This document shows positions 31,978-56,340 of a stretch of 64,000 nt of DNA, piece after piece; position 1 is the first letter of the stretch, and every line of letters begins with the position of its first letter. Location: assembly GCA_032718475.1 (NCBI GenBank), contig JAUCBJ010008796.1, positions 1 through 64,000 on the forward strand, in the 5' to 3' direction. The notes below the pieces were generated by a model. It was not told where the DNA came from. It did no database searches and worked only from the letters and a program-made list of their open reading frames with translations. A program made the position numbers and the translations under genes. This DNA comes from Nemertoderma westbladi (taxonomy: Eukaryota; Animalia; Xenacoelomorpha).

Positions 31978-32072
31978 ACTACCATATAGGTTACTACTTC
32001 CTAATAACAGTTCAGTTCTGTAACAGCTCAGATATTTTTATCTTAATTGATGACAAATCCTTTAAAATTCTC

Positions 32073-33282
32073 TGTAAAAGCTTTTGTGGGATACTGATTC
32101 GTTTGCCTTGCTGGCCAGTTCCCCCCCGGTCGCTAGAATACTCTAAAAGGGATCTATAGGTAAAATAGTGCAAGCTACCAGCTTATTGGCTGATGTGCTG
32201 TACTGAGGTATCTGGGTTCCGTTTAATCGGCCAACCAGCTTAGAGAGGTTGCCTTAGCCCTGCTGTCCGTATCGGCCAATAGAATTTGAGTGGGCGTTGA
32301 TTTCGACCTATCCCAGAGCTACTGAACTGAATTTTCCTATCTCACTGCTCATCCTCTGTGTTGGACGGGAGCTTCGGGGAATAAGGGTAGTTGGTATCCT
32401 CGTATAGGGATTCTAGTCTTATGATTCTTCATATGATTCTGTTGTTGTGTTCCCATTTTTCGCCATAACACCGGCTTTTGGGAAGAACTCTAGTAAAACT
32501 GCTTAAATTATCGAAGGTATAAACTGTTATCCTATCAACCTACCATCCTACCTACTAATCAATCAATCAACCTGATTCTGTTGCTAATCATATTGTTTGT
32601 ACTGTTATTTACCGTCAGTTATTAATTGTATCTATTTGTTGATGGAAATATTGCTCTTTGGAGAATACGGATAAATCACCCAAATTTCCCAATTTTCTTG
32701 ATACACTACAGGTTAGAGAGACAGGCTATATATAACAATTGCGATTTATATTAATGTGGTGTGTATTGAATCTAATGTTATTTAGCAGACCCTACATGAG
32801 TCAATTGCTGCTCTCTTTATGTGTGATCAAATTTACTGACGGTCGGCAGAATAGTGTGCATGATTGTAATTGATAACAAAGTATTTCCTAAAGAATACGC
32901 TTTATACTTTAATCATAAGCAGTATCGTTGCGTTTAGTATAAGTCCTAGTCCTGTTTAAATAGATAGAGCGCCACGTCCTAAAGGAACTGTTAATATTTC
33001 CCGAAAGCCAATAATATCTGTCAGAAATTAATTAATAACGATCAATCGAATAATACAGTAAGTTTACACTGCAACCTTACACTGCAATAATAAAATTTAA
33101 GCAGCCGAATTCAGCCTCCCGGGTGTAGATCCATCGGGTGAATGATCGCGCATGGGCTGTCTTCGGGTAATGTTTTGTTTAATAGCATAAAATATTGTCG
33201 TATGCTAAAGGTGTTTTAATTAACTAGAAGACATATAAATTTTGGCAGGTTGAACTGCTAAAGGTCTTCAAAAGCGCGAACA
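32073..33282 (+). repeat. 5' LTR of C (1210 bp)
   Basis: TGTAAAAGC...GCGCGAACA; CCAAT boxes near 32184 and 32276; AATAAA near 33089. Confidence 0.97.
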
Positions 33283-33295
33283 ATAACAGTTTATA
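33283..33295 (+). promoter_or_regulatory. Non-tRNA primer-binding site of C (ATAACAGTTTATA)
   Basis: 13/13 complementary to LTR segment TATAAACTGTTAT 32518-32530. Confidence 0.75.
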
Positions 33296-33348
33296 ATCTT
33301 ATTGCAGTAAGCAATAAGGTTGCAAATACCGTAGTGACCGGTAACCTG

Positions 33349-33480: not shown

Positions 33481-33703
33481 AGTACATTAGTATTATTCGA
33501 ATTTGATTAGTGTATACCGGTAGGTCTTAATACTTAATCAGGGACTGCAGCCCTGAATTTTTATTGAGATTCTACTTATTTCTGTCGGTTTTATTTACTA
33601 GTAGGCTAATATTGAGCAGAAGGCGTGTGACCCTGCTCAGATTGTTCAGATAATTGTAGGGTGAGCTGCTGTCTGACTGTTGTTGAGTTTGGAGAGATTA
33701 CGG

Positions 33704-35984: not shown

Positions 35985-38900
35985 GCGAGCGACCCAAGAT
36001 AATTATGCGGGATACGCCAGGGAAGAATTAATGTCTATTGTCGAGTCACAATGGAACTTTCCCGGACTCGGACTCCCGTTGGACCTGTCCGAGGCTACTT
36101 GGGAAGATATACACAGGATGGGAGTGGCAAAAGATACAATGGATCCAGCTGTTTGGAAGAGGTCGGCATCAGGATATGTGCAGGGATTCTTCGGCTCCTT
36201 GGAGCGATTGGAAGAACAACTGTTTCGACAACCTCAAGGACCTCAAGAGCAGGAAGAGCTGCTATACCAAGTACGTGAAAGAACCCTACGCATACGACTA
36301 ATCCTCTCAGCCTTTGAGGAAACTTCCAAAAGAAGACAGGACACGTCGCTGCAGGTTGCTGTCAAAACTTGGTTACATCGGGTAGATCTCCAAGTACAGG
36401 AAACGGCCCAGTGGAAATCCCAGCTGGCTGAGAGATCAACCTATGAAGAACAAACTGATGTCACCCTTTCTCAAGCGGAAAGCGAAGAGACCGCCGAGAA
36501 ACCGCGAACTAGAGACGCTATCGACATTTATTTGTCCGACTATCAGCGATTCCTAGGAGACGAAGAGTTGAGTAGACGGCTGTCTGGACTTTCCCCTAAT
36601 AGTGAAGGAACCAAGCTTGTGTTGGACTCAATCGATGCCGAAATGTTAGCTGCAAACCAAGCTGAATGTGATGAAAAACTCCGCCTCACTAGAGTCCGAG
36701 AAGAACAAGTAAAGAAAGAATGGATAGAGAAAAGAAAGGTGGCAGCAGCAGCGGCGGCAGAAGCAGAAGCCAAAAGAAAGGCGGCAGAAGCAGAAGCCGA
36801 AAGAAAGGCGGCAGAAGCAGAAGCCGAAAGAAAGTCAGCAGAAGCAGAAGCCGAAGCCGAAAGAAAGGCGGCAGAAGCAGAAGCAGAAAGAAAAGCAGCA
36901 GTGGCAGAAGCAGAAAGTAGAGCTTCTGAGGAGACTATCCAATTGGAGTTGAAAAATCTGCAAGAGACGCAAGACAGTATAAATAAACAGTTTACTGCTA
37001 ATCAAATGCAGATGATGAGAAAATCTACTCCCAAGCGCCAGGGATACACATCCTCGGAGGAAGGCGAGACTACCGATCCTGAAGGCGGAGGAAATAGATC
37101 TCATCTAAGTAGGCGTAGAAAAACATCTTACCGCCGCAAATTGCCTGATTTGCCCCCAGCTGTTAGAAGACAGCTAGCTAGCACAGACTTGAGTAGTATA
37201 GAACCCACAGCCCAAAGTATTAAGGTCCAAAGACTCTCTACAATAGTTGATGAGCCTGAGATAATTAGGCCTGTCGTTCCCAAGGTCACTTCTGTGTTAG
37301 AGACCCCTGTACTTCCAGAGCTTAACTCTAAATTCCCTTTACATAGTACTACACTGCCTGTACCCGGTGGAACAGTCCAAGAGAATATCCCTGTCCAGAT
37401 AGCAGAGAGAGAAATCAAAAATTTGTCTCCCGTCGTCCCGCGTCAGCCCGCTACTATGTTGGCGACTCCCGCTTCGGCGGTTGAGTGGGTGGAAGAGGGA
37501 CGGCGGGGGATGAATCTCCTGCTAGGACAAATGCAGGAGACTGTCCACCAACTTAAGGGAACAGTGAGAGAAGGCAGAGCAGAGTTGCAAGAAGTGCAGC
37601 AAAGTATCGCACTAGAACGCGATAAATTAGTCAATATACAAAGGGGCATACCAATACCCCCTGTAACATTGTGTCAACCTGTTAGGTCTGAAGTATTACA
37701 TGCGCAAGGTGTGGAGCCTACACGCATCTATACTGCTAGTGAAGTTGAAACTCCTATAACAAACCCTATTAAGGGTGATTATAGACCTGTTATTAATGAT
37801 ATTCCCTATAGACCTGATAATGATCCGAGAAATTTATATACCGATAATTCGATATTAAATAACACGATGGCCCAAGAAAGCTTTACGCGTCAGATGGCTA
37901 GAACAGAAGCCCGCCAAGCGGTCAAAGTGGGAGAGATCGTCAAATTCAATGGAGATGAGATGAAATGGTTACCTTTCAACGAATATTACAAAGATAGCAT
38001 ACAGAACTCTGTACTATCTAACGGAGAGAAACTTAGATTCCTCATCAAGTGCTTGGAAGGACCTCCCAAGTTAATGGCGTTAAAGTTTATTGGACATCCA
38101 GATGGGTTAAGACAAGTTTGGGATACATTAAACATCAGGTATGGTAACAAGGATAACATAGCTAAGTATTTGTATGCAAAATTAGTAGCCCCTCGACACT
38201 TCCTTAGTAGCGGGATTATAGAGTTTTCCGATGAGATTCAAGAGATCTGTAGACAATTGGACTGGTTAGGTAAGTCTCATGAATATCAGAGTTCCATGGT
38301 TATTGGAGCCGTAGTCTCTACTTTACCAAAGGGTGGAGTATGTACACGCTGGGACAAGAAAGTGTTGTACATGAATGAACAACAACGACGAAGTCCTACC
38401 ATGGCTGATCTCATGTCTTTCTTAGATGGTGAAGTCAAACTACAACTCATCAAGCAGTCCAGAGAAAAAACATCGGAAAATAAGGTAAGTGAGAAACCCA
38501 CTTCTAGGAGAAGGGTAACACCGGTGTGTTACACTGACGACGGCGAAAGCCAAGCTTCTCAAGAAGAAGACAGCGGGAAAGACACCGAACGTTCTTACTA
38601 TGTTGACAAAACCTCCAAGGACGTAAGTAAATACAAGGCTCGAACCAACAATAGGAGAGAACAGGTTGCTAAGACCCCTCCTCAGTCTCCTAGCAGAATG
38701 CGCGGAAGAAAGCCCGAAGAAAGAACGAGAGTGCATCAGACTACCCAAGGTAAAGTAAGTAACATAAAACCTAACTGTGCGCTGTGCGACGGGACCCACC
38801 GTTTGAGTGCGTGTGCGGAATTTCTAAAGAAATCCCTTGTAGACAGACGTACAGTTGTGTGGGACAAGCGGTTATGCTATAATTGCCTCAGACCAGGACA

Positions 38901-41900
38901 CCAACGGCGAACCTGTTACTCCGACATAAAGTGTGAAAAGTGTGGTGCGAAACATCACATCTTGTTACATAGTGAGTTCGAACGAGACAAGCAGAGTCAG
39001 GTAAGTGAGTCCGAACTACATGTCCAATTCAGTGATGTAAACGACACTGATCAGGAGTCTGAGATGGAAGGGTTCTATACTGACGAATTCTCCGACGCCA
39101 ATGAATCCTGTTATCTAATAAATACCGCGGTGTATCGAGCACTTACTTACGAAAAGGACATCAACGATGAGTTTTCCCCAACTAATTTCGCCAAACAACC
39201 ATCTTGGAAAGCTCCAGCTTCCAACGTAGGAATCAGAGAATTTCCTGTAGTTCAGGTAAGAGTTCACGGTCTTAACAAAAGCTACATAGTGAATGCCCTC
39301 CTGGACTCCGGCAGCACAGGAACATTCATCGATCAAGAACTAGCCGAAGATATCTTTGCTGGACAACCCAAGTTCCGGACTAAATTGAATATGTCAGGAA
39401 TTATGCAGGTTTGGAAATCTACCCTAACGGCAGATTACTATGTAGGTGTGTTGTCCACCCCCCAGGATAAGTTAGGAACACAAGGCATAAGGTCAGTAAA
39501 AATGGTGGCTATAAAGAACTTTGCTACTACTCAAGCAGACCTTTATAATTGGGACGAAGATGAGAGCGTCCAACATCTGAAGATACCTCGATTCCAGACA
39601 GATTATCCTGGAGTGCAAATACTTATCGGCCAAAACGCGCACGAGGCGCTCGAAACATTAGAGAAACGGCCTGCTCAACCACAACCACTGCAAACCTATG
39701 CGGTAAGAACTAGAGTAGGTTGGTACTTTACTGGCCCTTCCCGTAGAACTCTCGAAGAGAGAATGCCACACGAACAAATATATCAAGGAAGTGATTGGGA
39801 AGTGGAAAGCAGTGAGGTGGACGAACTAACTGAGGGAACACCATACTCCTCAGATAATGACGACATCTACCAACTCTTCGAAGAAGAGAACACAATTGAC
39901 CTACTTACAGAGAATCAAACTTGGAAAAACCAAACGAACCTATGTCAACTGATTCGCCCAACGGAATCCATTATTTATAATGACGAACTTAATGACGAGG
40001 TAGAGCGCTACAACGCTAGAACTCGGGACGAACTCGCCGTACGATTCTTTACCCAAGAATTAGTAGAACCCAATTCATACGACAAAGCCCTGTCAATAGA
40101 AGAAGAAAGAGCCAAGCAAATCCAGGAAACAACCACACGTTTTTTAAAAGATCAAGGTAGATATGAAATCGGACTACCCTTCCGAAAACGTGAACCCAGA
40201 TTTATAAATAACAGACCCTTGGCTGAGAAAAGAATCAATCAATTACATCGACGTCTTACGGCAAACACTTCAGCTAAGGAAATGTACCAAACTCAGTTGA
40301 AGAAATTTATCACAAAGGGATATGCGGAGCGAGTACCGGAAGGAACTCCAATAACTGAAAGAACTTATTATCTAACACATCATTACGTTCCCAAGCCCGG
40401 TAAACCCCATGAAGTACGAGTCGTATTCGATGGCTCTGCTCTATATATGGGCCAATCCCTTAATTCCGAGTTGTTACCAGGACCCAATTTACTACAATCT
40501 TTGTTGGGAATACTTTTGAGATTAAGACAATATTCCATCGCGTTCGCTTCTGATATCGAAGGAATGTTCTTACAAGTCAAGGCGCTGGAGAGAGATAGAG
40601 ACATCCTGAGATTTCTGTGGTGGCCTGAAGGAGACCTCAACCAGAAACCGGTGGAGTACTGGATGACCATCCAGGCTTTTGGGATCATATCTAGCCCTTC
40701 CAATGCCTGCTCCGTGGTGCGAACCACTGCGAATGACAACCGAGACTCCTTCTCCAAAGAAGTGATAGACAACATAAAACGCAATATATACATGGACGAC
40801 AATTTAAGGTCCCTTCCATCAGTAGAAGAAGCCATAGCTGTCGCGAAAGGAACGGTAGAGTGTTTGAAAAGAGGTGGATTTCGACTGACGAAATTCACTA
40901 GTAACTCCCGTGAGTTTCTGGAAGCCATACCGGTAGAGGATCGCGGAGCGAAAGACCTAGACTTAATAAAAGACGATCTTCCTGAAACCAAGACGCTAGG
41001 CTTGAAGTGGGACACGGAAAGAGATATCCTGTTTTTTCAGCTAAAACAGCGAGATAATCCAGTTCGGACCAAACGGATTTGTTTAAGTATCCTGAGCACT
41101 TATTTCGACCCATTGGGATTTATTAGCCCAGTTATATTGATTGCTCGGAGTTTAGTACAACAAATGTGGCTTGAAAACCACTCGTGGGACGATCCCCTCA
41201 AGGGAGAATTATTAAAGAAATGGATGAAATGGGAGGACTCGCTACCTGCTATCGAGAACTTTATAATTTCCCGTTCATATTTTGGTCATGTTCTCCCTAC
41301 GTATTCCTATCAACTCCATGTATTTGGAGATGCCAGCGATATGGGAATCGGTATAGTAGCATACCTGCGAGTCGAAACTCCGGATGGAATCAAAGTTGCC
41401 TTGGTTACCTCTAAGGCATTGATTAACAACAAGCTTAAGGTTCCTCGGGCGGAGTTAAAAGCAGCCTTATACGCTACAGCTATCGGCCGGAATGTAACGG
41501 AACAGATCGATTATCCACTGGAGAAAACTGTTTATTGGACCGACGCTTTACTTGTGTTGGAATATATAACCAATGAAGTCTGTCAGTTCAGCGTCTTTGT
41601 TACTAACAGAGTGGCCATTATTCTTAGTCGCACAACGATAGATCAATGGAGACATTGCCCTGGTACGATTAACCCAGCTGACATCGCCTCCAGAGGAGCA
41701 ACTCAACAGGAACTGATAGATACCCCTGACTGGTTGTGTGGACCCGACTTCCTGAGCAAGGAAGAGGATGAATGGCCTCCTCACCTTACTACGGCTGAGA
41801 TTAGACAAGCCAAGGGAGCGGAGAAAGTCAAACCCAAAATTAGAACAAGTAAATCGAAATTATTTAAACCGACAATCGATCTATCTGTATTACATACTGC

Positions 41901-43611
41901 CGAAAACGATACTTCGGATCCACAATCCCTCGCCACAAACAAGTCTGTTGTGGAAATTAGAGACAGAGATTGGAAATCTGAGATACCAGATGTCTCGCAA
42001 GGAATCTCACCCCTGCTGCAGAGAGCACTGCATCATTACAGTTCCTGGAATCGTCTCTGTAAAGCCATCACATACTTAAAGAGATGTTTTCACCATCATT
42101 ACTCCAGGAAGCAGACCACTAGTGATCCTGCTCCAGTAACATCTGCGCAAGTTTATGTTATTAAAGATCTACCGAAGTACAAGATATCAGACCGGTTTCT
42201 AAAGGAGAAGATCAGTTACCAGGAGCATGAAGAAACTAATAAGCAGCTACTGAGACTCCTGCAATGCTATGAGGATTCCGATAGGTACTTTCTGTTGTTG
42301 AGAAATCCGCAGATGCGCTTAAGGGATCGCTTCTCTAGCACAATGATAGATGGGTTAATACGTGTTGGAGGAAGGCTTACAAACGCCCCATTATCCTTTG
42401 ATACTAAATTCCCTATACTCATTAGTAATCTTGAAGTACAAATCAAGATGATTGTAGATGTTCACAGTAAACTGTATCATGCTGGTAGAGAACGAGTTCT
42501 TAGCGAAATTCGAACCCGCTATTATTTTCATAAACCGCGTAGAGCTCTGAATCAAGTTCTTAGGAACTGCATACCTTGTAGGAAAGTATTCAGTAGGCCT
42601 TTAACACAGCGAGAGGCAGAATTACCTATGGAACGAGTAAGCTTTTATGAACCACCCTTTACTAATACTGGTGTGGATTTATTTGGCCCTATTGAAGTGT
42701 ATCGTGCTAGAACTATAATCAAGAGATGGTGTGTAATCTTTGTCTGCATGACTTGTAGAGCTATCCATCTCGATATGGTGAACGATCTATCTACTAACAG
42801 CTTCGTCTTATGTTTACGACGACAGATCGCTCGTTTCGGCACTAGCAATACGATGAGATCCGATAAGGGAACGAACTTCATTGGTGCCAACAACGAAATT
42901 CAGGCTTACGTAAAGGACTGGAATCAAAGACAGGTGGACGACCAGCTACGGATAACGGCGTCTAGCTGGACCTTTAACGCCGCCGACGCCCCTTGGTGGG
43001 GAGGAAGTTGGGAGAGATTAATTCGAAGTGTCAAGACCACATTTCACTTTATAGTGCCGTGCCGCGCATATCTCACCGACGAACTTCTACGGACGTTAAT
43101 GGAGGAAATCGCTGCCTATCTTAACGAGAGACCGCTTATGCCAGTCTCATCGAGTCCCGACTCCCTGGAAGCGCTAACACCCGCGCACTTCCTACTTAAA
43201 AAACCTGTAGCCATGCTCCCACAATCCGAGATTGCCGATGGGGATGAATACTGTCGTCGAACTTGGCAGCTTATGCAGTTGCTATCCCGTCGTTTCGCTG
43301 ACCATTTTGAGAAACATTATCTGCCCACGCTACAACTTCGAACTAAGTGGTTTGCGCAGCAGGAAAATGTCAGCGCCGGAGACATGGTCCTTATTGTAGA
43401 TCCGGACCTTCCACGTAGACGGTGGCAGATCGGTCGTATCATCGAGACGCACATCTCGGAGGATGGTCTAGTGCGCTCAGTAGAACTCGTCGTAATGCGG
43501 CGTAATTTCAAGAAACCCGGTACCCAAGGAGGTGAGGTCTCTATAGGGGTGCCGGGAACAGGCGGCGGTGGACTCGTGAGGGTCTGGGGGCACGTTAAAT
43601 CTTTCTTATAG
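35950..43611 (+). CDS. gag-pol: BEL/Pao gag-pol polyprotein (capsid, 3 Zn knuckles, aspartic protease, RT, RNase H, integrase); true start uncertain
   Basis: KFNGDEMKW; CALCDGTHRLSAC/CYNCLRPGHQRRTC/CEKCGAKHHILLH; LLDSGS; YLTHHYV..VRVVFDGS, DIEGMF, YMDD; FGDAS, PRAEL, WTDA, NPAD; HSKLYHAG..CIPC, GVDLFGP, SDKGTNF, GGSWER. Confidence 0.97.
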   Translation: MEEHQADWARNKRATQDNYAGYAREELMSIVESQWNFPGLGLPLDLSEATWEDIHRMGVAKDTMDPAVWKRSASGYVQGFFGSLERLEEQLFRQPQGPQEQEELLYQVRERTLRIRLILSAFEETSKRRQDTSLQVAVKTWLHRVDLQVQETAQWKSQLAERSTYEEQTDVTLSQAESEETAEKPRTRDAIDIYLSDYQRFLGDEELSRRLSGLSPNSEGTKLVLDSIDAEMLAANQAECDEKLRLTRVREEQVKKEWIEKRKVAAAAAAEAEAKRKAAEAEAERKAAEAEAERKSAEAEAEAERKAAEAEAERKAAVAEAESRASEETIQLELKNLQETQDSINKQFTANQMQMMRKSTPKRQGYTSSEEGETTDPEGGGNRSHLSRRRKTSYRRKLPDLPPAVRRQLASTDLSSIEPTAQSIKVQRLSTIVDEPEIIRPVVPKVTSVLETPVLPELNSKFPLHSTTLPVPGGTVQENIPVQIAEREIKNLSPVVPRQPATMLATPASAVEWVEEGRRGMNLLLGQMQETVHQLKGTVREGRAELQEVQQSIALERDKLVNIQRGIPIPPVTLCQPVRSEVLHAQGVEPTRIYTASEVETPITNPIKGDYRPVINDIPYRPDNDPRNLYTDNSILNNTMAQESFTRQMARTEARQAVKVGEIVKFNGDEMKWLPFNEYYKDSIQNSVLSNGEKLRFLIKCLEGPPKLMALKFIGHPDGLRQVWDTLNIRYGNKDNIAKYLYAKLVAPRHFLSSGIIEFSDEIQEICRQLDWLGKSHEYQSSMVIGAVVSTLPKGGVCTRWDKKVLYMNEQQRRSPTMADLMSFLDGEVKLQLIKQSREKTSENKVSEKPTSRRRVTPVCYTDDGESQASQEEDSGKDTERSYYVDKTSKDVSKYKARTNNRREQVAKTPPQSPSRMRGRKPEERTRVHQTTQGKVSNIKPNCALCDGTHRLSACAEFLKKSLVDRRTVVWDKRLCYNCLRPGHQRRTCYSDIKCEKCGAKHHILLHSEFERDKQSQVSESELHVQFSDVNDTDQESEMEGFYTDEFSDANESCYLINTAVYRALTYEKDINDEFSPTNFAKQPSWKAPASNVGIREFPVVQVRVHGLNKSYIVNALLDSGSTGTFIDQELAEDIFAGQPKFRTKLNMSGIMQVWKSTLTADYYVGVLSTPQDKLGTQGIRSVKMVAIKNFATTQADLYNWDEDESVQHLKIPRFQTDYPGVQILIGQNAHEALETLEKRPAQPQPLQTYAVRTRVGWYFTGPSRRTLEERMPHEQIYQGSDWEVESSEVDELTEGTPYSSDNDDIYQLFEEENTIDLLTENQTWKNQTNLCQLIRPTESIIYNDELNDEVERYNARTRDELAVRFFTQELVEPNSYDKALSIEEERAKQIQETTTRFLKDQGRYEIGLPFRKREPRFINNRPLAEKRINQLHRRLTANTSAKEMYQTQLKKFITKGYAERVPEGTPITERTYYLTHHYVPKPGKPHEVRVVFDGSALYMGQSLNSELLPGPNLLQSLLGILLRLRQYSIAFASDIEGMFLQVKALERDRDILRFLWWPEGDLNQKPVEYWMTIQAFGIISSPSNACSVVRTTANDNRDSFSKEVIDNIKRNIYMDDNLRSLPSVEEAIAVAKGTVECLKRGGFRLTKFTSNSREFLEAIPVEDRGAKDLDLIKDDLPETKTLGLKWDTERDILFFQLKQRDNPVRTKRICLSILSTYFDPLGFISPVILIARSLVQQMWLENHSWDDPLKGELLKKWMKWEDSLPAIENFIISRSYFGHVLPTYSYQLHVFGDASDMGIGIVAYLRVETPDGIKVALVTSKALINNKLKVPRAELKAALYATAIGRNVTEQIDYPLEKTVYWTDALLVLEYITNEVCQFSVFVTNRVAIILSRTTIDQWRHCPGTINPADIASRGATQQELIDTPDWLCGPDFLSKEEDEWPPHLTTAEIRQAKGAEKVKPKIRTSKSKLFKPTIDLSVLHTAENDTSDPQSLATNKSVVEIRDRDWKSEIPDVSQGISPLLQRALHHYSSWNRLCKAITYLKRCFHHHYSRKQTTSDPAPVTSAQVYVIKDLPKYKISDRFLKEKISYQEHEETNKQLLRLLQCYEDSDRYFLLLRNPQMRLRDRFSSTMIDGLIRVGGRLTNAPLSFDTKFPILISNLEVQIKMIVDVHSKLYHAGRERVLSEIRTRYYFHKPRRALNQVLRNCIPCRKVFSRPLTQREAELPMERVSFYEPPFTNTGVDLFGPIEVYRARTIIKRWCVIFVCMTCRAIHLDMVNDLSTNSFVLCLRRQIARFGTSNTMRSDKGTNFIGANNEIQAYVKDWNQRQVDDQLRITASSWTFNAADAPWWGGSWERLIRSVKTTFHFIVPCRAYLTDELLRTLMEEIAAYLNERPLMPVSSSPDSLEALTPAHFLLKKPVAMLPQSEIADGDEYCRRTWQLMQLLSRRFADHFEKHYLPTLQLRTKWFAQQENVSAGDMVLIVDPDLPRRRWQIGRIIETHISEDGLVRSVELVVMRRNFKKPGTQGGEVSIGVPGTGGGGLVRVWGHVKSFL

Positions 43612-45477
43612 TGCAAGGGAGTTACTGAAGGCCCTCGTGTCTTGCGAACCATGAATTGACATGGTGCCGTGGTACCGTCTTGTCGGCCTGTTGCCGTACT
43701 GCCAGTCCTGTACACAGTAGGGGTGGTGACTTAGTGTGATCTGTGGTTTATGTGGTTTATTTGGTAGGTCTATGTTTGGTATGTATGAGTTGACCAGACT
43801 CTGTACTGTCTCTGATTGGTTGCCAAAACGTGTTTTTTCCCAGGGTAGCACTATTGGAATGGAGGTGTTGCATCGGAATGGACAGGTTCTGATGATTCTG
43901 TTGGTACTACTATTGGAATGGAGGTGGCACCCGGAATATCGGCTGCAAGGAGGGGTTGGTGTTGTAGTGTGGTCCGAGTGAATGATACTCTGGAATCTGT
44001 GGTTTGTGTGTGTACGTGGTATACGTGAGTGTATGTATGGCCACTGCGAGTGGGTATGGGAACCCTTACCGGTTGGTTCAGTCGCCGCTGGTTATTAGTA
44101 GGACAATATTTTACTGCGCCCCAGCATACTTTGTGCACACAAAGTTATTTTACCCTGTCGGTAAAATAAGGTACTCTAGACTCTTTATCAGTCTATACAA
44201 TTTTGTCCCCTCTGATTTTGTCACCGATTTTGTCCTCCCCGATTATGTCCTCTGTGTGTGCGTGGTATGCGTCAGATTGGTGTTTACCTTTTGTGTACTT
44301 GATTATCGAACATCTGTTGAGTACACGTGTACAGTGACTGGTAAGTGGTTACTTGTTCCTAGCTTTCGAGCTAGTCAGTATTGTTTGCGGAACCGACTTC
44401 CCCTCAATACTGCCGGCGAGGCGGGTGAAAACGTGTCAAAATTCCAATGTGGGTAGCGCAAGCCCGCTTGGGACAAGACCGTCGGTTTGGCTCAAGGGCG
44501 ACCTTGATGCTCGATCGCTATCGACTGGTCCACCCGCCGGTTGACTCTCTGAGTTGGCTCAATGTACAGTCAGGCCACAGCAAGTTGACAGTAGCCGACC
44601 ATCTGGCTACACCGACGAGTTGTGCCGGTGTGATCGGGGGATTGAAAAGTGAACCCGGGAAGCATCGGGCTACCCTCCGGCCCGGTCTGATAAAAACATC
44701 AGTCGGACTGGCCCCAAGGGTGGTGGGACAGCGTCCGCCTCATGGGTGCGCCTCGGAGTCATCAGAGAGGAGCCCAGAAGGACGCAAGCGATAATCTTTG
44801 AGACGCAACAACTCAATCGCCCAGTTGGTCGTTTATGTTTACTGGAAAGAGACAGAGAACTCTCTGGAAACTATGGAAGACAAGACACTCTTCCCTCGAC
44901 CACCTCCCTAATTCCTCAAACATCTAGGGACTCCCAAACGTGATACGTCTGGAGTGGGTGTATGACTATGTTATTTATCTATTTTATTACATTTTATATG
45001 CGAACTTTATTATGTACTTTATTATAATCGTTTTTATTCAATTTTATTTAGTGGAATGTTATTTTAGGGATTATTTGGTAGATTAGTGCAATATATTAGT
45101 GTTTATTACGTACATAATCACTTATAATATATATTTAGTGCGACGGCGGGAAATAATTATTTTTTCTCTTCCCTTACTGTCCGTATCATATTATAAATAC
45201 GTGACTACAGTAAGATGAAATGTCCGTACTTCTTAAAGTACAATAAAGCCACTACTATATTTAAGTATTATTGGTAGGCAGAGTATTAGGAATGCAAAGT
45301 TCAGATCCTCGTGTCTCGGCTAAACCAAGCTCTGGGTAGACCTTGGAAACGACTTGCCTCTTCACACTGACATTGCTTCGTGCGATATTGCTCTTCTACC
45401 TTATAACAAATAATACATATAGTAGCGTGATGTCCCTCTAACAGTAGCGTAAATCGCAAATAAATCTGTTAAACTTT

Positions 45478-45763
45478 TTGACCATCTGTAATTCTAGTCG
45501 ATTAAGATATCGTGGCACCCACCGATATACTTGAAAGACAAATCCTAGAATCAGTGGTTAACGTCCCCAGACAAGTTCTGGAATAAATTGGTGCCCATCC
45601 TAAATATTAATTTAATATTTATTAAAATCTGTAAAATCCCGATCCTTTAAAATTTTTAGTCAATTAAGATATCGCGCAGTATTTACCGATATTCTTAGAA
45701 GGACTATTTTATAGAATTAAGGATCCTAAGTCCCCAGATATGCTCTGGAATAAAATTTGTGTC
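45478..45763 (+). ncRNA. Two tandem copies of a putative structured cis-acting RNA between pol and ORF2
   Basis: Both copies have nested stems, a CCAGA-n5-TCTGG hairpin and a possible loop-tail pseudoknot, with different but pairing outer stems. Confidence 0.5.
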
Positions 45764-46567
45764 AATTTAACATCAAATAATAAAATTCACGGGAATAAAT
45801 TTAAATTCATATTCAAATGAATTTCATAAATTGTCATTTTGCGCAATTTATAACATTCCCAAAATTCCAGTAATTAATAGATCATGGGAGCGGAGATTCA
45901 TATTGAGTGTACTAGAGTGCGAGAATCTCCAACATATAGTCAATAGCCGATAAAATTTATAAAATCATGCATAAAGAGGATATTGACAATTAAAGAATTA
46001 CTATTAAATAACATCCCAGATCTGTATGCATGAGAATTCCCCTAATTCTACCGCTAGTTTTCCATAATGTCACCATGGCAACACCCACGCTAGAATTAGA
46101 AGCAAGTTAAAGGAACAATAAAAAGCTTACCCCATTGCGTAGCATAAGAGTATACATAACGCACTATTAGTATCCAAGGATACATAGTAATAACGTGACA
46201 TTCTGGAAGACACTGACTAACGGACAAATGGCATGCATGTGTGCAGTAAGCAATGATTGTATGGAATTTGTGCGTTTATAGGTGAATGTTACTACTAAAG
46301 TGTGTTTACAGTAGCTAATCGCAATTGTAAAGTAGCCCTAACTCTACCGAGATAACCTCAAGTGGATTCAAGCCTTGGGGACGGACAGTGGTGGGACTTG
46401 TGCCGGTTATCGTTGTCGTGCTGTTGCTACATGTTGGCATAAACACTGCGACAACGGTACATCGGCGCTGAGAAACCCACTGTCCGGGGGCAAAGCCTAG
46501 TAGGCAGCGACGCCCGCTTGCCTAAAATATTAACTCATATTGATATTAATAAACTCAGATAACAGAT

Positions 46568-49500
46568 ATGACGGAATTGATAGAAGATGACCTTGGTATC
46601 AGGGAGCGATATACTCTACCTTTACAAGCGTTTGTGGATAGCTTGATACGCGGTGAAGCCGATCCGACTATTACGGAGGACGATGGTCGTTATATCGAAC
46701 CGCCGATGTCCCAGGAACAACTTACGCGTGAATTGGACTATAGAAAATTCACCGCTCGCTATACGAATCGTAATGGTACGTATATGGACTTCTTAACTAC
46801 CGGCCATCCTACCGATTTAAATGATACGGAAGATGTAGACACCGAAAGGGAAATGGTTTTATTTAAATATCATGCCCAGCGGAATCGTAATGATAAACCG
46901 AGAATAGAACACGAGAACTCTATTCGCAACCTACTCGACAGAGAAAACGTTGAAGAACCCGATAAGCGCCTCAACTTCAACGACTACTTGGAATTTTTGA
47001 GAGAAACCTATCTCAATATTGCCAGTCAACAGAACCTAGAGACTCGATATCCTCAAGGTATACATCACGATCCCATAGTAGAACTCAAACGACTCTATTT
47101 CACCATGATGTATCTTACCGCAGATCGTCCACTGCCTGTTGTCCCGGACAGCTTTGAACAAATGGAAGAGTATTGCAAAACTGGAGAACGATCACCAGCG
47201 TTTCCTCTGCAGGACGTACGTCTTTGGTATTATTGTGACTCATGTCCTAGACCTAACCAGCAAACGGAAAGACATAAACATCCGCGGAGACGTTGTGCTA
47301 AACACAGTTTTACGCGTTATACTTACGGGAGTTTCGAGCGAAACCTGTTCGACGTATCACCTACGATCGCCCGTCTAAAACGATCGCTAAATAAACCTAT
47401 GATCAGAGTTCCGGAATACTCGGTCAGGCCTCCCCATTTCCCCGTGAGACCTCAAACTCTTGATCCTAACAGTATCACTGATCCTCCCGAGTTATACTCA
47501 CTGTTCAAAGATTTGGTGTTACCCGAGCAGTTAATCGGTGGTGTTCCAGCGGTAGGTTCGTTAGATATTCGACCATCCTATTTAACCGGATTGGGACGCG
47601 GGCATCTAACATCGCCATTTAATCCTTACAATCGACCAGGATTAACTCCGATACAACCTGCCACGGAAATCGAGGAGAGTGTCATCAGAAACGCTTTAGA
47701 CGCCATCCGACAGAAAATCGGAAAGGGAACCCAGGATTTTCTAGAGAAACGTAAATTACAGCAGCAGGTCCAATCGGTGAAAGAGTTAGCCTTGCCGCAG
47801 TTTGATAGAGAAATCCAAAACCTCGAAGAGGACATCGAGCTTGGACATACGTATTCTCTACAGGAGTTTCTAGAAGAACGCTTACAGAAACAAGCGGAGG
47901 AAAATCAACTAGAGGAGAAACATACGGAAATGGATGAGAGAGAGGAAGCCGCTTTAGCCCAACCCGAAGCTCAGATACTCATAACCGATCTCTACTCTAA
48001 AACCGTCCGTCATCCCTCGATGGTTCCGCATTTCGGAGACAAACTTTTCGCAAAGATACAACCTCAACCGGTTGATATCGGCATAAGGTCGCAAAATCTT
48101 ATCGCTGACGCTCCTATGTTACAGCGTCCGCCAATCGAGGCCGCTCGAGTTGACGGTATACTCGTTGAACCTCCGGACAATCGAGCGGATCTTGTCCGTC
48201 GTATGGTACACGATGTCAACATACGCGCTAGACCTTTACAGAACTCTTTTTATGGAATTAAAGATCACCCTTATTACGTTAATCTGACTCAATATTATAT
48301 GGTAAAACCAGAAGATCCGACGCATAATTTAAAGTTTCTACCACTAATAAATCCTCTGGACATTGTCGAACTCGAACAATTGCAAAAACATCTGGATCAG
48401 TTAGTAAAGGTAAACTCATTTCGAAAACCATATAACGTTTCTCGAATAGAGAAGGATACAGAACCTCCTTATAATCTCGATGGATTTATTAAAACTCGAT
48501 TAGTCCATTGGAATCTAGACGTAATATTCGAGGAGGAGAAAATACAAAGATATGGAAATGTGGAGACGTATACCACTCGATACATGAAGTATAGTGATCT
48601 CCCTGACGCTAATCAATGCGCCACCTTGTGGCATCCAGTAGGGATGACCCTCGAGAACGCCACCAAAGAGTGGAATGAAACTCTTAATATCATTGAGATG
48701 TATGGCGTTGTTACTTACGATAACGAAGGTAGCATTCCAATCGGAGAATTAGGAACTACGCGCATGATACACATACGCGGATTAGCTGGTTCCACTCACG
48801 TGTTTACGCGAGCGTGTTCCGACGTGGTCGATTATTCCTTTGAAACTCTCACCGAAACGCAAAAGAATCTCCGACATGGACAATTCGAACTCGCGCAGCG
48901 TTACGTCATTGACACCGAACGCAAACCGGCCATGGGTATCGATGGATCGATGTTACCCCAGCCCGTTCTCGAGATGTTATTCAACGAAAGAATCATTAAA
49001 ATCGGCTCAGCTGTTTACGGGGATCTCCAAAACGACTTTCGGAATATGGAAAATATCCCCTATCCTTTCGTGGATACTCAGCTGATAGCTCCTTGGGCCG
49101 AAGGCCGAGGTTTCTTTCGCACCATGTATGCTAATGCGTCTAGCAACGTTACAAAGGTGCAACGAACTTCCATCGGACATCTTGCCTTTCAGGAATACGG
49201 ATGTAATTTCAAGGTCGGAAATCCCATCAACTATCAACAAGTATACGGAGACCATTATTCTCGATTATACTTTGACGGACCGTTGACCGCACCTGGCGCC
49301 GTGTATAGCTTCATGAGTGTTCCACTCCGTCCCTCCTTAGCTATCTACACGATCTTCGAAAACACCGCACTTTCCGGTTGGCTAGCCGATGTGTGCAGTC
49401 GTACTATACGCGCCCATCCATTAATCCTTGGGACCAAACTCGCTAAGCTAGATGAACATAATAAATTCATCCGCTTTGAATGTTTCCGACGGTTTTTAAC

Positions 49501-50821
49501 CCCGTTTCGCAACGTGGATAGCCAATTCAAAGACCGCGCTTTGACCAAGCTCAGCTTAAGAGACTCGGCTGCGGAGAAGTTAGATAGCGCTGGATTTGCT
49601 ATTTTCAAAGACGTTTGTATAATAAACCTGCACTCCTCGGTTATCCAAAGACCTCGGATCCCCACAGGTTATTCTGTCGTGGAAATTCAGACGGTAGGTC
49701 CACTTGAGGAGACGGCCATGCCTACCTCAACTATACAAGGGGAAGACGAACCCATATGTTTAGAATCTGAAGAGATTCAGCCCCCCACGTCTCGGAGTAG
49801 CGATAGCGACTACATATTGGAATGGTATCAAGGTCCACAGTGTCTTACTGCGTATGATTATCGCCATGCCAATTATGTTTCTCGACAACGTTGTCGGCTG
49901 TGCGCATCGAGAGACCATATTACGTCTATGGACACCAACGATCTCTGTTCCTATTTCCACGAGCAACCGTCGATGGAAATCTATTGTGCATATTGTCGGC
50001 TTAATAATTTGCATATTTTTGCTGTCTGCCCCCAATTTATGACTCAATGCCATCATTGTCAATTAAAAGGACACGCCAGCTTTGATTGTCCATTTAATCA
50101 TGATTTAGAGAGCGTAGATGAAATGATTGTACTACGTTATATCAGAGCTTGGGAAGCGAACGCTGATTTACATTGTGATTCACGCCATCGCTATTACCCT
50201 GGACGCGCTTACGAAGGAGTTTATGCGTTCCATCCTTATTTGTTTGCCTCCGTCGAGCAGAAATCACGCCTATCAAGTTATGAACTACTGAAGCGCGTTG
50301 GAGAATGTATTTCAACCAAATATGTACGCAAATTTCTCAGGAGCATTAATCCGAGTGACATCAATTCTTACAACTTAATAAACTTTATCCGTCAAGATCC
50401 GGACTATGGAGACTTATTTGTCAACTCATACCCCGAGTTACAGGAAGTGTATCGACGGCCTTACGAGTATCGAGCCCGCGAACGCGAGTTGGAAAGAACC
50501 ATTAAACCAAGGAAGTTTCTAACTACCTATGGTCCACCCACGGCCCTCGTTCAGACCACTCGTAAAGGACCCGTAAGAGCGGCTGTCTTGAAACGAGCTC
50601 TCAAAGCCGTTAGACCCCTCTCCCCGGACGTTGATGTCAATCGACCCGGTACTTCGACCGGCGGATATACCGATCGTAATCCCATACCTTCTGATGCAAT
50701 CATATTGCACCCTTCACCCAGGAGTTATAGCCCTCCTTGTAAAGTGGCTCGCCCCAAAGAGAAAAGGACTCTTGCTAGCTTTAAAAAACTGCGTAAACGC
50801 CGTCCGCGCAAGAAAGACTAA
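46568..50821 (+). CDS. Accessory ORF2 of C (1417 aa): N-terminal Cys/His domain, coiled coil, DEDDy-type 3'-5' exonuclease, Zn-knuckle cluster, basic tail
   Basis: Intact ATG-TAA ORF inside the LTRs; VVTYDNEG, LPQPVLEMLFNERIIKIGSAVYGDL, FVDTQLIA, SIGHLAFQEYG, PLRPSLAIYTIFE; CRLCASRDH, CAYCRLNNLHIFAVC, CHHCQLKGHASFDC; KKLRKRRPRKK. Confidence 0.8.
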   Translation: MTELIEDDLGIRERYTLPLQAFVDSLIRGEADPTITEDDGRYIEPPMSQEQLTRELDYRKFTARYTNRNGTYMDFLTTGHPTDLNDTEDVDTEREMVLFKYHAQRNRNDKPRIEHENSIRNLLDRENVEEPDKRLNFNDYLEFLRETYLNIASQQNLETRYPQGIHHDPIVELKRLYFTMMYLTADRPLPVVPDSFEQMEEYCKTGERSPAFPLQDVRLWYYCDSCPRPNQQTERHKHPRRRCAKHSFTRYTYGSFERNLFDVSPTIARLKRSLNKPMIRVPEYSVRPPHFPVRPQTLDPNSITDPPELYSLFKDLVLPEQLIGGVPAVGSLDIRPSYLTGLGRGHLTSPFNPYNRPGLTPIQPATEIEESVIRNALDAIRQKIGKGTQDFLEKRKLQQQVQSVKELALPQFDREIQNLEEDIELGHTYSLQEFLEERLQKQAEENQLEEKHTEMDEREEAALAQPEAQILITDLYSKTVRHPSMVPHFGDKLFAKIQPQPVDIGIRSQNLIADAPMLQRPPIEAARVDGILVEPPDNRADLVRRMVHDVNIRARPLQNSFYGIKDHPYYVNLTQYYMVKPEDPTHNLKFLPLINPLDIVELEQLQKHLDQLVKVNSFRKPYNVSRIEKDTEPPYNLDGFIKTRLVHWNLDVIFEEEKIQRYGNVETYTTRYMKYSDLPDANQCATLWHPVGMTLENATKEWNETLNIIEMYGVVTYDNEGSIPIGELGTTRMIHIRGLAGSTHVFTRACSDVVDYSFETLTETQKNLRHGQFELAQRYVIDTERKPAMGIDGSMLPQPVLEMLFNERIIKIGSAVYGDLQNDFRNMENIPYPFVDTQLIAPWAEGRGFFRTMYANASSNVTKVQRTSIGHLAFQEYGCNFKVGNPINYQQVYGDHYSRLYFDGPLTAPGAVYSFMSVPLRPSLAIYTIFENTALSGWLADVCSRTIRAHPLILGTKLAKLDEHNKFIRFECFRRFLTPFRNVDSQFKDRALTKLSLRDSAAEKLDSAGFAIFKDVCIINLHSSVIQRPRIPTGYSVVEIQTVGPLEETAMPTSTIQGEDEPICLESEEIQPPTSRSSDSDYILEWYQGPQCLTAYDYRHANYVSRQRCRLCASRDHITSMDTNDLCSYFHEQPSMEIYCAYCRLNNLHIFAVCPQFMTQCHHCQLKGHASFDCPFNHDLESVDEMIVLRYIRAWEANADLHCDSRHRYYPGRAYEGVYAFHPYLFASVEQKSRLSSYELLKRVGECISTKYVRKFLRSINPSDINSYNLINFIRQDPDYGDLFVNSYPELQEVYRRPYEYRARERELERTIKPRKFLTTYGPPTALVQTTRKGPVRAAVLKRALKAVRPLSPDVDVNRPGTSTGGYTDRNPIPSDAIILHPSPRSYSPPCKVARPKEKRTLASFKKLRKRRPRKKD

Positions 50822-50899: not shown

Positions 50900-52110
50900 T
50901 GTAAAAGCTTTTGTGGGATAACTGATTCGTTTGCCTTGCTGGCCAGTTCCCCCCCGGTCGCTAGAATACTCTAAAAGGGATCTATAGGTAAAATAGTGCA
51001 AGCTACCAGCTTATTGGCTGATGTGCTGTACTGAGGTATCTGGGTTCCGTTTAATCGGCCAACCAGCTTAGAGAGGTTGCCTTAGCCCTGCTGTCCGTAT
51101 CGGCCAATAGAATTTGAGTGGGCGTTGATTTCGACCTATCCCAGAGCTACTGAACTGAATTTTCCTATCTCACTGCTCATCCTCTGTGTTGGACGGGAGC
51201 TTCGGGGAATAAGGGTAGTTGGTATCCTCGTATAGGGATTCTAGTCTTATGATTCTTCATATGATTCTGTTGTTGTGTTCCCATTTTTCGCCATAACACC
51301 GGCTTTTGGGAAGAACTCTAGTAAAACTGCTTAAATTATCGAAGGTATAAACTGTTATCCTATCAACCTACCATCCTACCTACTAATCAATCAATCAACC
51401 TGATTCTGTTGCTAATCATATTGTTTGTACTGTTATTTACCGTCAGTTATTAATTGTATCTATTTGTTGATGGAAATATTGCTCTTTGGAGAATACGGAT
51501 AAATCACCCAAATTTCCCAATTTTCTTGATACACTACAGGTTAGAGAGACAGGCTATATATAACAATTGCGATTTATATTAATGTGGTGTGTATTGAATC
51601 TAATGTTATTTAGCAGACCCTACATGAGTCAATTGCTGCTCTCTTTATGTGTGATCAAATTTACTGACGGTCGGCAGAATAGTGTGCATGATTGTAATTG
51701 ATAACAAAGTATTTCCTAAAGAATACGCTTTATACTTTAATCATAAGCAGTATCGTTGCGTTTAGTATAAGTCCTAGTCCTGTTTAAATAGATAGAGCGC
51801 CACGTCCTAAAGGAACTGTTAATATTTCCCGAAAGCCAATAATATCTGTCAGAAATTAATTAATAACGATCAATCGAATAATACAGTAAGTTTACACTGC
51901 AACCTTACACTGCAATAATAAAATTTAAGCAGCCGAATTCAGCCTCCCGGGTGTAGATCCATCGGGTGAATGATCGCGCATGGGCTGTCTTCGGGTAATG
52001 TTTTGTTTAATAGCATAAAATATTGTCGTATGCTAAAGGTGTTTTAATTAACTAGAAGACATATAAATTTTGGCAGGTTGAACTGCTAAAGGTCTTCAAA
52101 AGCGCGAACA
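50900..52110 (+). repeat. 3' LTR of C (1211 bp)
   Basis: Preceded by short purine tract GGGAGCGG (50892-50899), followed by the TSD. Confidence 0.97.
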
Positions 52111-52115
52111 TTCTC

Positions 52116-53330: not shown

Positions 53331-53926
53331 GGGTATAACTTTTCGCCGTATCCGTATCCGTATGCATTTGCCGTATCCGTATGTACATACGCGTATGTGC
53401 CGTATGTAATGGATTCCTATGGAGAATAATCCGTATGTGATTTTAGAGATTAGGCATTGCGGACCAGTAAGAAGTGCACAACACACATGCAGACTGAAGA
53501 CAGGTAGGCCTACTTAAAGCTAAGTGATTTAAAGAGTGTGGCTGCCGCTACCTTATGTCAGCGAGTGCAACTGGGTGCCAGTAATTAATCTAAGTCCAAC
53601 CGGGCGGCCAGGTGTCAGTTTGTACAATAAAACAAGCGCTGTGGCGCATCCCGGGACTGAAGGACATCATCTGTCACTCATCCTGGACCTACAATGTTTA
53701 GTTGACGTAAGGTAGCCACACTCTTTAAATCACTTAGCTTTAAGTAGGCCTACCTGTCTTCAGTCTGCATGTGTGTTGTGCACTTCTTACTGGTCCGCAA
53801 TGCCTAATCTTTAAAATCACATACGGATTATTCTCCATAGGAATCCATTACATACGCACATATCCGTATGTGCATACGGATACGGCAAATGCATACGGAT
53901 ACGGATATGGCGAAAAGTTATACCCT
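53331..53926. mobile_element. MITE/foldback element with ~225-bp inverted repeats and 8-bp TSD (hAT-like)
   Basis: 53331-53560 is the reverse complement of 53701-53925; TGATAGAT at 53323-53330 and 53927-53934. Confidence 0.9.
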
Positions 53927-54859: not shown

Positions 54860-56340
54860 GCCGGTAATATACGTATTCCCCTGTAATTGTTGCACATAGC
54901 CCTACTACCCCTCTTAAAAATATTAATTAAACGAGACTTAGACCATTCAGAAGGATAAACAGCACTCGAGAATACAAGAATAAATAATGCTGTGATATAT
55001 ATTAACCACTGGATAGGTAGAAAACGTAGAAACCCTGGTGCGTATCCATCCGGCCCACTACCCGTACCACTCTGGTGCGTATCCGTCCGGCCCACTACCT
55101 GTACCACTACCCAGCCCACTACCCGGCCCACTCTGGTGCGTATCCGTCCGGCCCACTACCCGTACCACTCTGGTGCGTATCCGTCCGGCCCACTACCCGT
55201 ACCACTCTGGTGCGTATCCGTCCGGCCCACTACCCGTACCACTACCCAGCCCACTACCCGGCCCACTCTGGTGTGTATCCGTCCGGCCCACTACCCGTAC
55301 CACTCTGGTGCGTATCCGTCCGGCCCACTACCCGTACCACTACCCGGCCCACTACCGGCCCACTCTGGTGCGTATCCGTCCGGCCCACTACCCGTACCGC
55401 TCTGGTGCGTATCCATCCGGCCCACTACCCATACCGCTCTGGTGCGTATCCATCCGGCCCACTACCCGTACCACTCTGGTGCGTATCCATCCGGCCCACT
55501 TCCCGTACCACTCTTAATTTTCCCTACTGCCTCAGTTAGCTCGCCGACTGTAATATAATCGTCAAGGCATGGAATATATGGCAAGGGTGACGCATCTCGG
55601 TCGAGATGGATATGGTCTATGTCTGGTTGAGTGACGTTCAAGACTTTCTCATAGTGTAATTTAAACTCCTCATCACTCAGTTGAATCTCAGACGCAGTTG
55701 TACCATCCTGGAGACTGCCCCTCCAGTTGATAGCACTCCAGCAGCGTTATCCTTCTATAGCAACTGAGTCCACCTGTTATGTGAGTCTCGCGAACCTCCA
55801 GCCATCGAGCTGACTTGAGCAGATTCAGCAAAATTATACTTGACTTAGAAGCAGATTTATACAGAGAGTTAGTAATAGACTCAATGGTTGCATCAACACT
55901 GGCTTCCTGTGGCACAGATATTGCAGTCGACTCCTATACACTTGATTGGTTTATTACCCATAACCAGAGTGTGCATGCGCAAGCTACAGGCAAACTCATG
56001 ATGACTACCCAACTCTACACCATGCCCATATATATATATTCGCCAACCATTGTATCTGCTAAGAGTGTTGCTACCAGGCGGGGATGGTTGGATGGGATTC
56101 TCCGGTCAGTTATCACTTTGACAGCCTGTGAAAAATCCAAGCACTCTGGTGAAGTAATACACAGATCGATTTCTGATATCCATACTTCACGCTGTCTAAA
56201 AGTAAGACCGGTACTGAGACAACCCATTTCTATAACTAAATGATTAGCTACTACTAATCCTGTTTATTTTATTATCCCGCATAATTTGTGTTAATTATGA
56301 TGTTAATGATGTTAATCCAAGTGATAGTTTCATTTTTTAT
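54860..56340 (-). mobile_element. Degenerate APE-type LINE fragment interrupted by a minisatellite
   Basis: GLTFRQREVWISEIDL...IPSNHPRL (endonuclease end); YPSEWSKSRLINIFKRGSRAMCNNYRGI (RT start). Confidence 0.7.
55034..55513. repeat. 37-bp minisatellite with internal sub-repeats
   Basis: CTCTGGTGCGTATCCGTCCGGCCCACTACCCGTACCA repeated. Confidence 0.95.

Follow-up and report, generated by a model that had tools for sequence, protein, structure and literature searches.

A 20-kb BEL/Pao element with an extra gene in the position of env

We analysed a 64-kb stretch of the genome of Nemertoderma westbladi (assembly GCA_032718475.1, contig JAUCBJ010008796.1, positions 1–64,000; hereafter the window, to which all coordinates refer). 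It contains a long terminal repeat (LTR) retrotransposon of 20,038 bp in which a large open reading frame (ORF), here called the extra ORF, occupies the position of an env gene, between pol and the 3′ LTR (Table 1). The single gag-pol ORF of the element contains Peptidase_A17 (E = 4e-36), DUF5641 (3e-19), DUF1759 (9e-12) and Integrase_H2C2 (4e-7), all above their Pfam cut-offs, and the element therefore belongs to the BEL/Pao group, with which its TG...CA LTRs and 5-bp target-site duplication agree. Because its two LTRs are 99.9% identical, with one gap, and are flanked by the duplication, the insertion is taken to be recent. Pol of this particular copy is interrupted near its 3′ end, since contigs from three of the four sequencing runs aligned to the element (X1, X3 and X5) skip positions 43521–44790. 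The interrupting stretch, rich in GT when read on the plus strand and with some cover by contigs from each of the four runs, has no match in the rest of the window or in Pfam and may be a repeat or part of a minority lineage of element copies.

The extra ORF (P0001) runs through 1417 codons without a stop or an intron; at this base composition, a frame of such length would stay open by chance with a probability of ∼2e-34. At the three codon positions it resembles gag-pol in base composition, and the 12 indels shown, out of 199, all lie outside it. Codon usage was dropped as evidence, the correlation with gag-pol (0.51) being no better than that of an off-frame control (0.48). A simple hydropathy test revealed neither a membrane helix nor a signal peptide (the highest 19-residue value is 1.36), and the N-terminus is acidic. 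An env identity was consequently rejected: by this test there is no signal peptide or transmembrane anchor, and the acidic N-terminus is accompanied by a basic C-terminus.

DNA of the extra ORF was found in six of the seven listed sequencing runs. When contigs from four runs, belonging to four studies, were aligned to the element, all 30 of 30 bins were covered in every run by very many divergent contigs; the extra ORF is thus part of a multi-copy family and not a quirk of this copy. Run X1 contributed 134,946 aligned contig records, a figure that, like the summed contig depth over the element, is not a copy number. Other contig joints correspond to internally deleted derivatives, some of them without much of pol (39863–44808). 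Scans of viral contigs found no relative, and Rfam found nothing in the element; there are no tRNA genes in the window.

Table 1. Coordinates of the BEL/Pao element and of the features of its extra ORF
Feature	Position	Strand	Remarks
Target-site duplication, 5 bp, left copy	32068..32072		right copy 52111-52115
5′ LTR	32073..33282	+	TG...CA, 1210 bp, AATAAA at 33089
Candidate self-primer inside LTR	32518..32530	+	exact reverse complement of 33283-33295, 13 nt, offset 0
Candidate splice donor	32709..32717	+	GT at 32712; same site in 3′ LTR at 51540; lead only
Primer-binding position	33283..33295	+	no TGG; complementary to a stretch of the LTR itself
gag-pol ORF, BEL/Pao type	36031..43611	+	2526 aa; final ∼30 codons derive from inserted stretch
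Stretch of ∼1.27 kb, of unknown origin, breaking pol 3′ end in this copy	43521..44790	.	contig joint in runs X1, X3, X5
Candidate splice acceptor	46336..46351	+	AG 46350-46351, shortly after a branch-like CTAAC; 216 nt upstream of ATG; lead only
Long predicted hairpin in leader of extra ORF	46382..46487	+	fold of 46300-46590, z -4.75, 0/200 shuffles as stable
Extra ORF (P0001), env position	46568..50821	+	1417 aa, ATG 46568 to stop at 50821
N-terminal ∼690 aa of extra ORF	46568..48634	+	Cys/His cluster 47234-47305; acidic helical stretch about aa 370-470
Predicted DEDDy-type 3′–5′ exonuclease domain	48635..49417	+	D718, E720, D819, Y927, E931
Three Cys/His zinc-knuckle motifs, then conserved helical motif common to both homologs	49892..50089	+	
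Basic tail resembling a nuclear localization signal, aa 1406-1417	50783..50818	+	sequence only
3′ LTR	50900..52110	+	1211 bp, short purine-rich tract just before

An initial annotation, made from the letters of the sequence, had described an intact ORF of 1417 amino acids (aa) without signal peptide or transmembrane helix, exonuclease motifs with Glu in place of the last Asp, three Cys/His knuckles and a tail resembling a nuclear localization signal (NLS), and each of these elements was recovered. The motifs are VVTYDNEG at aa 714–721 (48707–48730), KIGSAVYGDL at aa 811–820 (48998–49027), FVDTQLIA at aa 834–841, SIGHL at aa 868–872 and YTIFE at aa 927–931 (49346–49360). The knuckles, together spanning aa 1109–1174, read C1109-x2-C-x4-H-x9-C, C1140-x2-C-x5-H-x4-C and C1161-x2-C-x4-H-x4-C, and a fourth Cys/His cluster that the annotation had passed over is formed by C223, C226, C243 and H246. 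The latter lies within the N-terminal ∼690 aa, which gave no significant match in Pfam, the PDB or the ESM Atlas, the blank in the ESM Atlas for aa 1–690 being evidence of neither absence nor novelty.

Homologs of the extra ORF and the predicted exonuclease fold

The assignment of an exonuclease domain needs homologs, because direct approaches fail on the protein itself: phmmer against the PDB gave chance-level matches only, AlphaFold run from the single sequence produced no confident fold (predicted local distance difference test, pLDDT, 30), and Pfam, in which the initial annotation had proposed to look for DNA_pol_A_exo1, returned no family at E ≤ 10 over aa 690–970. An exhaustive phmmer search with aa 468–1267 against 1.84 billion representatives resulted in two matches at E ≤ 0.001, P0003 (648 aa, E = 7e-7, 31% identical) and P0004 (575 aa, E = 7.5e-5, 32% identical). 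Both derive from ENA assemblies, in which their contigs reach 9.4 and 11.5 kb, respectively, and the P0004 cluster consists of five near-identical members. Each of them matches the extra ORF twice, over the exonuclease region and then over the knuckles, with the order kept. A profile built from P0003 and P0004 only recognized the extra ORF with 51.5 bits, bacterial RNase D ranking second at 9.7 bits and 300 shuffled sequences reaching at most 3.7. Since the two remote relatives share the same domain order, the combination of exonuclease and knuckles appears to be an old module rather than a fresh capture from a host. For the knuckles, a profile gave matches to retroviral nucleocapsid at E = 8e-5 and to Air2 at E = 0.007. 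Word-index searches yielded none among 2415 and none among 4872 candidates, and a third returned P0003 itself only, among 7989; a PHROGs search and phage tblastn were blank or at chance level for the protein.

Residues D718, E720, D819 and Y927 are invariant in all three distinct sequences, and the last position of ExoIII is Glu in the extra ORF (Glu931) and in P0003 and Asp in P0004. Such a pattern, four invariant residues and an acidic one at the fifth position, suggests that catalysis has been retained.

Comparisons with characterized proteins converge on one fold, although those routes that share one alignment are not mutually independent. The NCBIfam model of RNase D (TIGR01388) matches the domain of the extra ORF itself at E = 0.0017, with 17.7 bits against a curated cut-off of 298.95. 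The domain stays below every curated cut-off, PF01612 being absent on it and reaching E = 0.2 on P0003; these scores bar filing it as RNase D proper, not a claim at the level of the fold. In the ESM Atlas, 25 of 30 matches were to clusters of 3′–5′ exonucleases (score 0.92; PF01612 on 50% of the members of the row shown), and the remaining five were unnamed, the top three rows being unnamed eukaryotic clusters. When a profile of the domain and its homologs was compared with 177,635 PDB sequences, Egalitarian came first (E = 0.0023) and EXD2 third (E = 0.45). In the profile alignment D718/E720 fall on D561/E563 of Egalitarian and D819 on D621, with ExoI and ExoII in register; D819 is also aligned with the ExoII Asp of EXD2 and RNase D, and D718/E720 with ExoI of RNase D. 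The alignment of Y927 and residue 931 to the ExoIII stretch of EXD2 is in order and not significant. A search of metagenomes with this profile (347 pattern matches) retrieved one locus, a bacterial RNase D (hhalign, 86.7%). This gene (L001:4646-5806), which adjoins an aspartyl-tRNA synthetase-like gene, is an ordinary RNase D and was used as an outside reference.

The structural route of AlphaFold and Foldseek, which the initial annotation had proposed, led nowhere with the protein itself and was productive with its homolog. Foldseek searches with a P0003 model matched Egalitarian, Exd1, RNase D and EXD2; the exonuclease domains of Klenow and other polymerases and viral 3′–5′ exonucleases are also among the fold matches of the model. 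Superposition on EXD2 gave Z = 9.3 and a root-mean-square deviation of 2.4 over 86 residues of the N-terminal half of the domain, the C-terminal half being unmodelled. Two points count against the structural assignment: the P0003 model, predicted from a three-row alignment, has a mean pLDDT of 30.6, reaches 50 or more in 68 of 648 residues and is moderately confident only over residues ∼35–120; and the protein of the element was never itself folded with confidence. Taken together, it is very likely that aa ∼690–950 adopt an RNase D/Egalitarian/EXD-type DEDDy 3′–5′ exonuclease fold, a prediction from sequence and models. The designation 'WRN/EXD-like' in the initial annotation is supported as to the DEDDy kind, but the data do not favour WRN over EXD2, Egalitarian, Exd1 or RNase D, and no HRDC, helicase or polymerase domain was found in the extra ORF.

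The matches to Klenow and other polymerase exonuclease domains would fit a proofreading subunit of the reverse transcriptase, permitting an RNA genome of ∼18–19 kb in the manner of nidovirus ExoN. The size of the element (20,038 bp) would agree with such a role, and the available part of bioRxiv 2021.02.01.429129 links ExoN to genome size in nidoviruses. However, the extra ORF is not fused to the polymerase, family members directed at RNA outrank the polymerase domains among the matches, the two homologs are stand-alone proteins of 575–648 aa, and much of the length of the element is either non-coding or the extra ORF itself. We consider proofreading highly improbable.

A candidate self-primer and a structured leader

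No tRNA-type primer site is present, TGG being absent after the 5′ LTR. The 13 nt that directly follow the LTR are instead complementary to a stretch inside the LTR, a match reached by 3 of 5000 Markov-simulated LTRs and by none of 3510 slid pseudo-sites. In the fold of 32518–33320 this pairing is predicted with a probability of 0.77–1.0. The accessible part of PMC6317226 takes as the mark of a self-primer a complement of at least 10 bp in the 5′ LTR to a stretch 0–5 bp past the LTR; the element has 13 bp at offset 0 and no TGG. We infer that the element primes itself, although half-tRNA priming may be an alternative. In a mechanism like that of Tf1 the primer would head the transcript and be freed by a cut; its first six letters here also read as a TATA box, which bears on where the transcript would start.

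Two other LTR elements of the window can be compared in this respect. A degenerate BEL-type element of 8.7 kb at 20681–29406 (plus strand), with LTRs at 20681–21308 and 28745–29406, a 5-bp duplication, a DUF1759 remnant (E = 0.001) and a 228-aa frame (27348–28034) before the 3′ LTR, has its own self-primer match of 10 nt at 21074–21083, at offset 0 (2 of 5000 controls). In the third, on the minus strand, with an LTR at about 6636–7101, no self-primer match was found (5 nt). This element (1–7101) is 70–90% similar to 21300–28700 and its LTR copies end at 454 and at about 6636–7101; its GC-rich primer position may be a mutated tRNA site.

One contig joint in X5, a run of presumed type, connects the LTR to 46350–46352 and fits a GT..AG splice that would bring the leader of the extra ORF next to the LTR. 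Among 16 joints tested it is the only one to do so, random deletions fit in 0.6–1.1% of cases, and about 100 more joints existed beyond those tested. The joint could equally begin in the 3′ LTR, as a back-splice or a duplication would, and the splice is a lead. The hairpin predicted in the leader of the extra ORF is the most stable of the 133 tiles of the element. It lies in an AT-rich region (45123–46487) in which several of the most structured 150-nt tiles cluster, the further ones at 45123–46020, and which also contains an internal repeat of ∼100 bp (45492–45587 and 45654–45754).

The leader hairpin, the structured tiles at 45123–46020, the candidate splice and the NLS-like tail would all suit an RNA adaptor resembling Rev, CERV or Egalitarian. 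The product of a spliced RNA would enter the nucleus, use its exonuclease fold and knuckles to bind stem-loops of the unspliced genomic RNA, and promote export or transport of that RNA, with catalysis dispensable. Egalitarian, the top sequence match in the PDB, binds RNA stem-loops, that of the I-factor included, without needing its catalytic residues, as stated in the available part of bioRxiv 2025.08.03.668247, and such complexes are among the Foldseek matches. A precedent is CERV of Cer1, which, according to the accessible part of PMC10309623, is made from a spliced RNA and needed for export of the genomic RNA; the likeness of the extra ORF to CERV or Rev would be one of analogy. Against an adaptor, the acidic residues and the tyrosine are kept across sequences only 25–32% alike, and the splice depends on one joint from one run of uncertain type. 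On balance, the adaptor role seems to us somewhat unlikely, yet not much less probable than the trimming of RNA proposed below.

Possible functions of the extra ORF

Our tentative proposal is that the extra ORF is an intact accessory gene of the BEL/Pao element, the product of which combines a predicted RNase D/Egalitarian-type exonuclease with three knuckles and may trim structured RNA of the element itself at its 3′ ends, most plausibly the self-primer. This possibility is raised because a primer internal to the transcript needs a defined 3′-OH, RNase D-type enzymes trim structured RNAs (PMC5408684), and the knuckles would hold the RNA. Processing of the 3′ ends of element RNA has also been proposed for DEDDy ORFs of retroelements (PMC5408684). 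The protein would be made from a spliced subgenomic RNA, joining the LTR donor to the acceptor 216 nt before the ATG, and its knuckles would bind genomic RNA. Once the loop of ∼750 nt that separates primer and primer site had been cut at some point, the exonuclease would digest the unpaired 3′ tail as far as the duplex, leaving a 3′-OH flush with the LTR end. Of the roles envisaged in the initial annotation, primer trimming has in this way gained a candidate substrate, a self-primer and not a tRNA, while proofreading has lost ground, the ORF standing apart from the polymerase and its best matches acting on RNA. A wider evolutionary scenario, in which a self-priming lineage of giant BEL/Pao elements replaced env with a primer-maturation enzyme, that is, with an ancient mobile exonuclease–knuckle module expressed from spliced RNA and trimming to the exact 3′ end, strikes us as rather unlikely.

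Several observations speak against trimming of the self-primer. The last catalytic Asp is replaced by Glu. The title of a reference in the accessible part of PMC4600332 has the Tf1 primer released by the RNase H domain, so that in principle an extra enzyme is not required. The separation of the ORF from gag-pol and its NLS-like tail suggest a protein of the nucleus and not of the particle. In Egalitarian all five residues are present, yet neither RNA binding nor function depends on them (available part of bioRxiv 2025.08.03.668247). In the neighbouring element at 20681–29406, which has a self-primer match, tblastn found no trace of the extra ORF, though that element is degenerate. One contig of run X5 lacks codons ∼121–1058 of the extra ORF, including the exonuclease (joint at about 46930–49740). 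Finally, among the variants listed, six of nine in the extra ORF change an amino acid and three are silent, compared with 7 of 24 changing and 17 silent in gag-pol; these counts run against a function under purifying selection, in a small sample (33 coding rows among 40 shown of 2933) that over-represents sites at which the present copy departs from the majority.

The derivative without the domain and the want of a silent excess (3/9) would be compatible with a passenger, either a host gene acquired recently or cargo that does nothing for the element, and P0003 and P0004 might themselves be host genes. A conserved cellular gene would, however, give many matches, not two at 31–32% identity in 1.84 billion representatives, and the initial annotation's view that the gene is not a recent host capture is strengthened by this scarcity. 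The unbroken, intronless frame, covered over its whole length in 4/4 runs, the lack of indels in it among those shown and a codon-position composition close to that of gag-pol likewise disagree with a passenger, which we regard as very unlikely; together with proofreading it is the least likely of the readings.

Nibbler, Mut-7 and Exd1, which belong to the same fold family, act in small-RNA pathways. An active exoribonuclease of this kind might trim or destroy host small RNAs or their precursors, such as PIWI-interacting RNAs (piRNAs) and small interfering RNAs, and thereby shield the element. The 3′ ends of mature piRNAs are 2′-O-methylated and bound by Piwi, which would make them poor substrates. 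Counter-defence would agree with a large, separately encoded gene whose N-terminal half could bind host factors, with the very many divergent contigs of the family in the host (the 134,946 records of run X1, their summed depth again being no copy number), and with the excess of amino-acid changes among the nine listed variants, as in a gene in conflict. Arenavirus ExoN, according to the available part of bioRxiv 2021.02.01.429129, suppresses host immune signalling, whereas DEDDy ORFs show no clear link to copy number (PMC5408684). Counter-defence fits the fold family, and we hold it to be somewhat unlikely, on a par with the adaptor role and not far behind the trimming of the element's RNA.

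Other features of the window

The leader of the main element between the 5′ LTR and gag-pol (33283–36030, 2.7 kb) contains a 38-bp tandem repeat (33348–33478), a duplication of ∼285 bp (33654–34222) and a stop-to-stop frame of 151 codons (35529–35984) without a Pfam match. Downstream of the element, decayed gag-pol fragments of another BEL/Pao element lie at 60488–63273 (plus strand) and share 38% identity with the main pol across 281 aa, and an element of ∼600 bp with long, near-perfect inverted arms, resembling a foldback element or a miniature inverted-repeat transposable element, is located at 53331–53925. Tandem arrays are formed by a 15-nt unit at 7103–8245 (within the region 7103–9934), a 50-nt unit repeated 27 times at 8575–9934, a 7-nt unit repeated 127 times at 18439–19326 and units of 37/135 nt at 55035–55514. 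A frame of 197 codons at 19286–19879 (plus strand), without a Pfam match at E ≤ 0.1, is presumably a fragment of a non-LTR reverse transcriptase.

Comparison with known systems

Searches of the literature for an exonuclease ORF in BEL/Pao elements found only papers on rotifer elements and Dada transposons and reviews, most subscription papers, Repbase and Dfam being outside their scope; searches for self-priming in BEL/Pao led to papers on other groups only, and those for an Asp-to-Glu change at the last catalytic position to nothing. DEDDy ORFs in the env position are known from the rotifer elements Juno and Vesta (PMC5408684), in line with the remark in the initial annotation that DEDD accessory ORFs have been reported in some gypsy-type elements, and from Athena/Terminon elements (accessible parts of PMC6431247, PMC5718144 and PMC6338049). 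Like ORF3 of the bdelloid-rotifer Juno, Vesta and Terminon elements, the extra ORF stands by itself between pol and the 3′ LTR and encodes a predicted DEDDy exonuclease resembling RNase D, without a membrane segment and with one acidic residue swapped. For the rotifer ORF3s, expression from spliced messages is reported (PMC5408684 and the accessible part of PMC6431247). Unlike them, the extra ORF resides in a BEL/Pao element, is 1417 aa long and contains three CCHC-type knuckles and an NLS-like tail; when compared by signature, not by sequence, the swap is at the last position here (DEDE) and at the third in rotifer ORF3 (DEED).

With Egalitarian, EXD2, Exd1, RNase D, Rrp6, WRN-exo and Nibbler/Mut-7 (PF01612) the extra ORF would share the fold and the order of the ExoI, ExoII and ExoIII motifs, and it differs from these proteins in its scores below the cut-off, in the attached knuckle module and in not being assignable to one subfamily. 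The Dada DNA transposons of Laccaria and Ectocarpus, as far as described in the available part of PMC3706591, also carry a DEDDy domain for which a part in 3′-end processing has been proposed, but there it sits within the DDE transposase of a DNA transposon and has the four canonical acidic residues. The Tf1/Tj1 and Tf1/sushi group resembles the element in having a primer-binding position complementary to its own LTR and no tRNA site (PMC4600332 and PMC6317226, accessible parts); in contrast to the element, these are Ty3/gypsy retrotransposons with primer release by RNase H and, in the same parts of these sources, no accessory exonuclease. CERV of Cer1 in Caenorhabditis elegans is a nuclear accessory protein that an LTR element expresses from a spliced RNA (PMC10309623, accessible part), as may hold for the extra ORF, Cer1 belonging to another element group, so that the comparison is by analogy only.

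The activity of retroelement DEDDy ORFs is not yet demonstrated (PMC5408684). With the present case, such ORFs are found in a second superfamily of LTR elements and a conserved exonuclease-plus-knuckle module is defined, in an element that offers two candidate RNA substrates, the 13-bp self-primer duplex and the long leader hairpin, and so turns the role into a testable question. It also illustrates that position alone does not make an ORF an env gene, and that this gene goes wholly unnoticed in a routine Pfam annotation. Should the trimming of the self-primer prove true, it would provide the first demonstration of an accessory nuclease at work in the priming of an LTR element, and a function for retroelement DEDDy ORFs. 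What is known from earlier systems, then, is the DEDDy kind of extra ORF; what is new is its BEL/Pao carrier, its size, the fusion to knuckles, its DEDE signature and its presence alongside a candidate self-primer.

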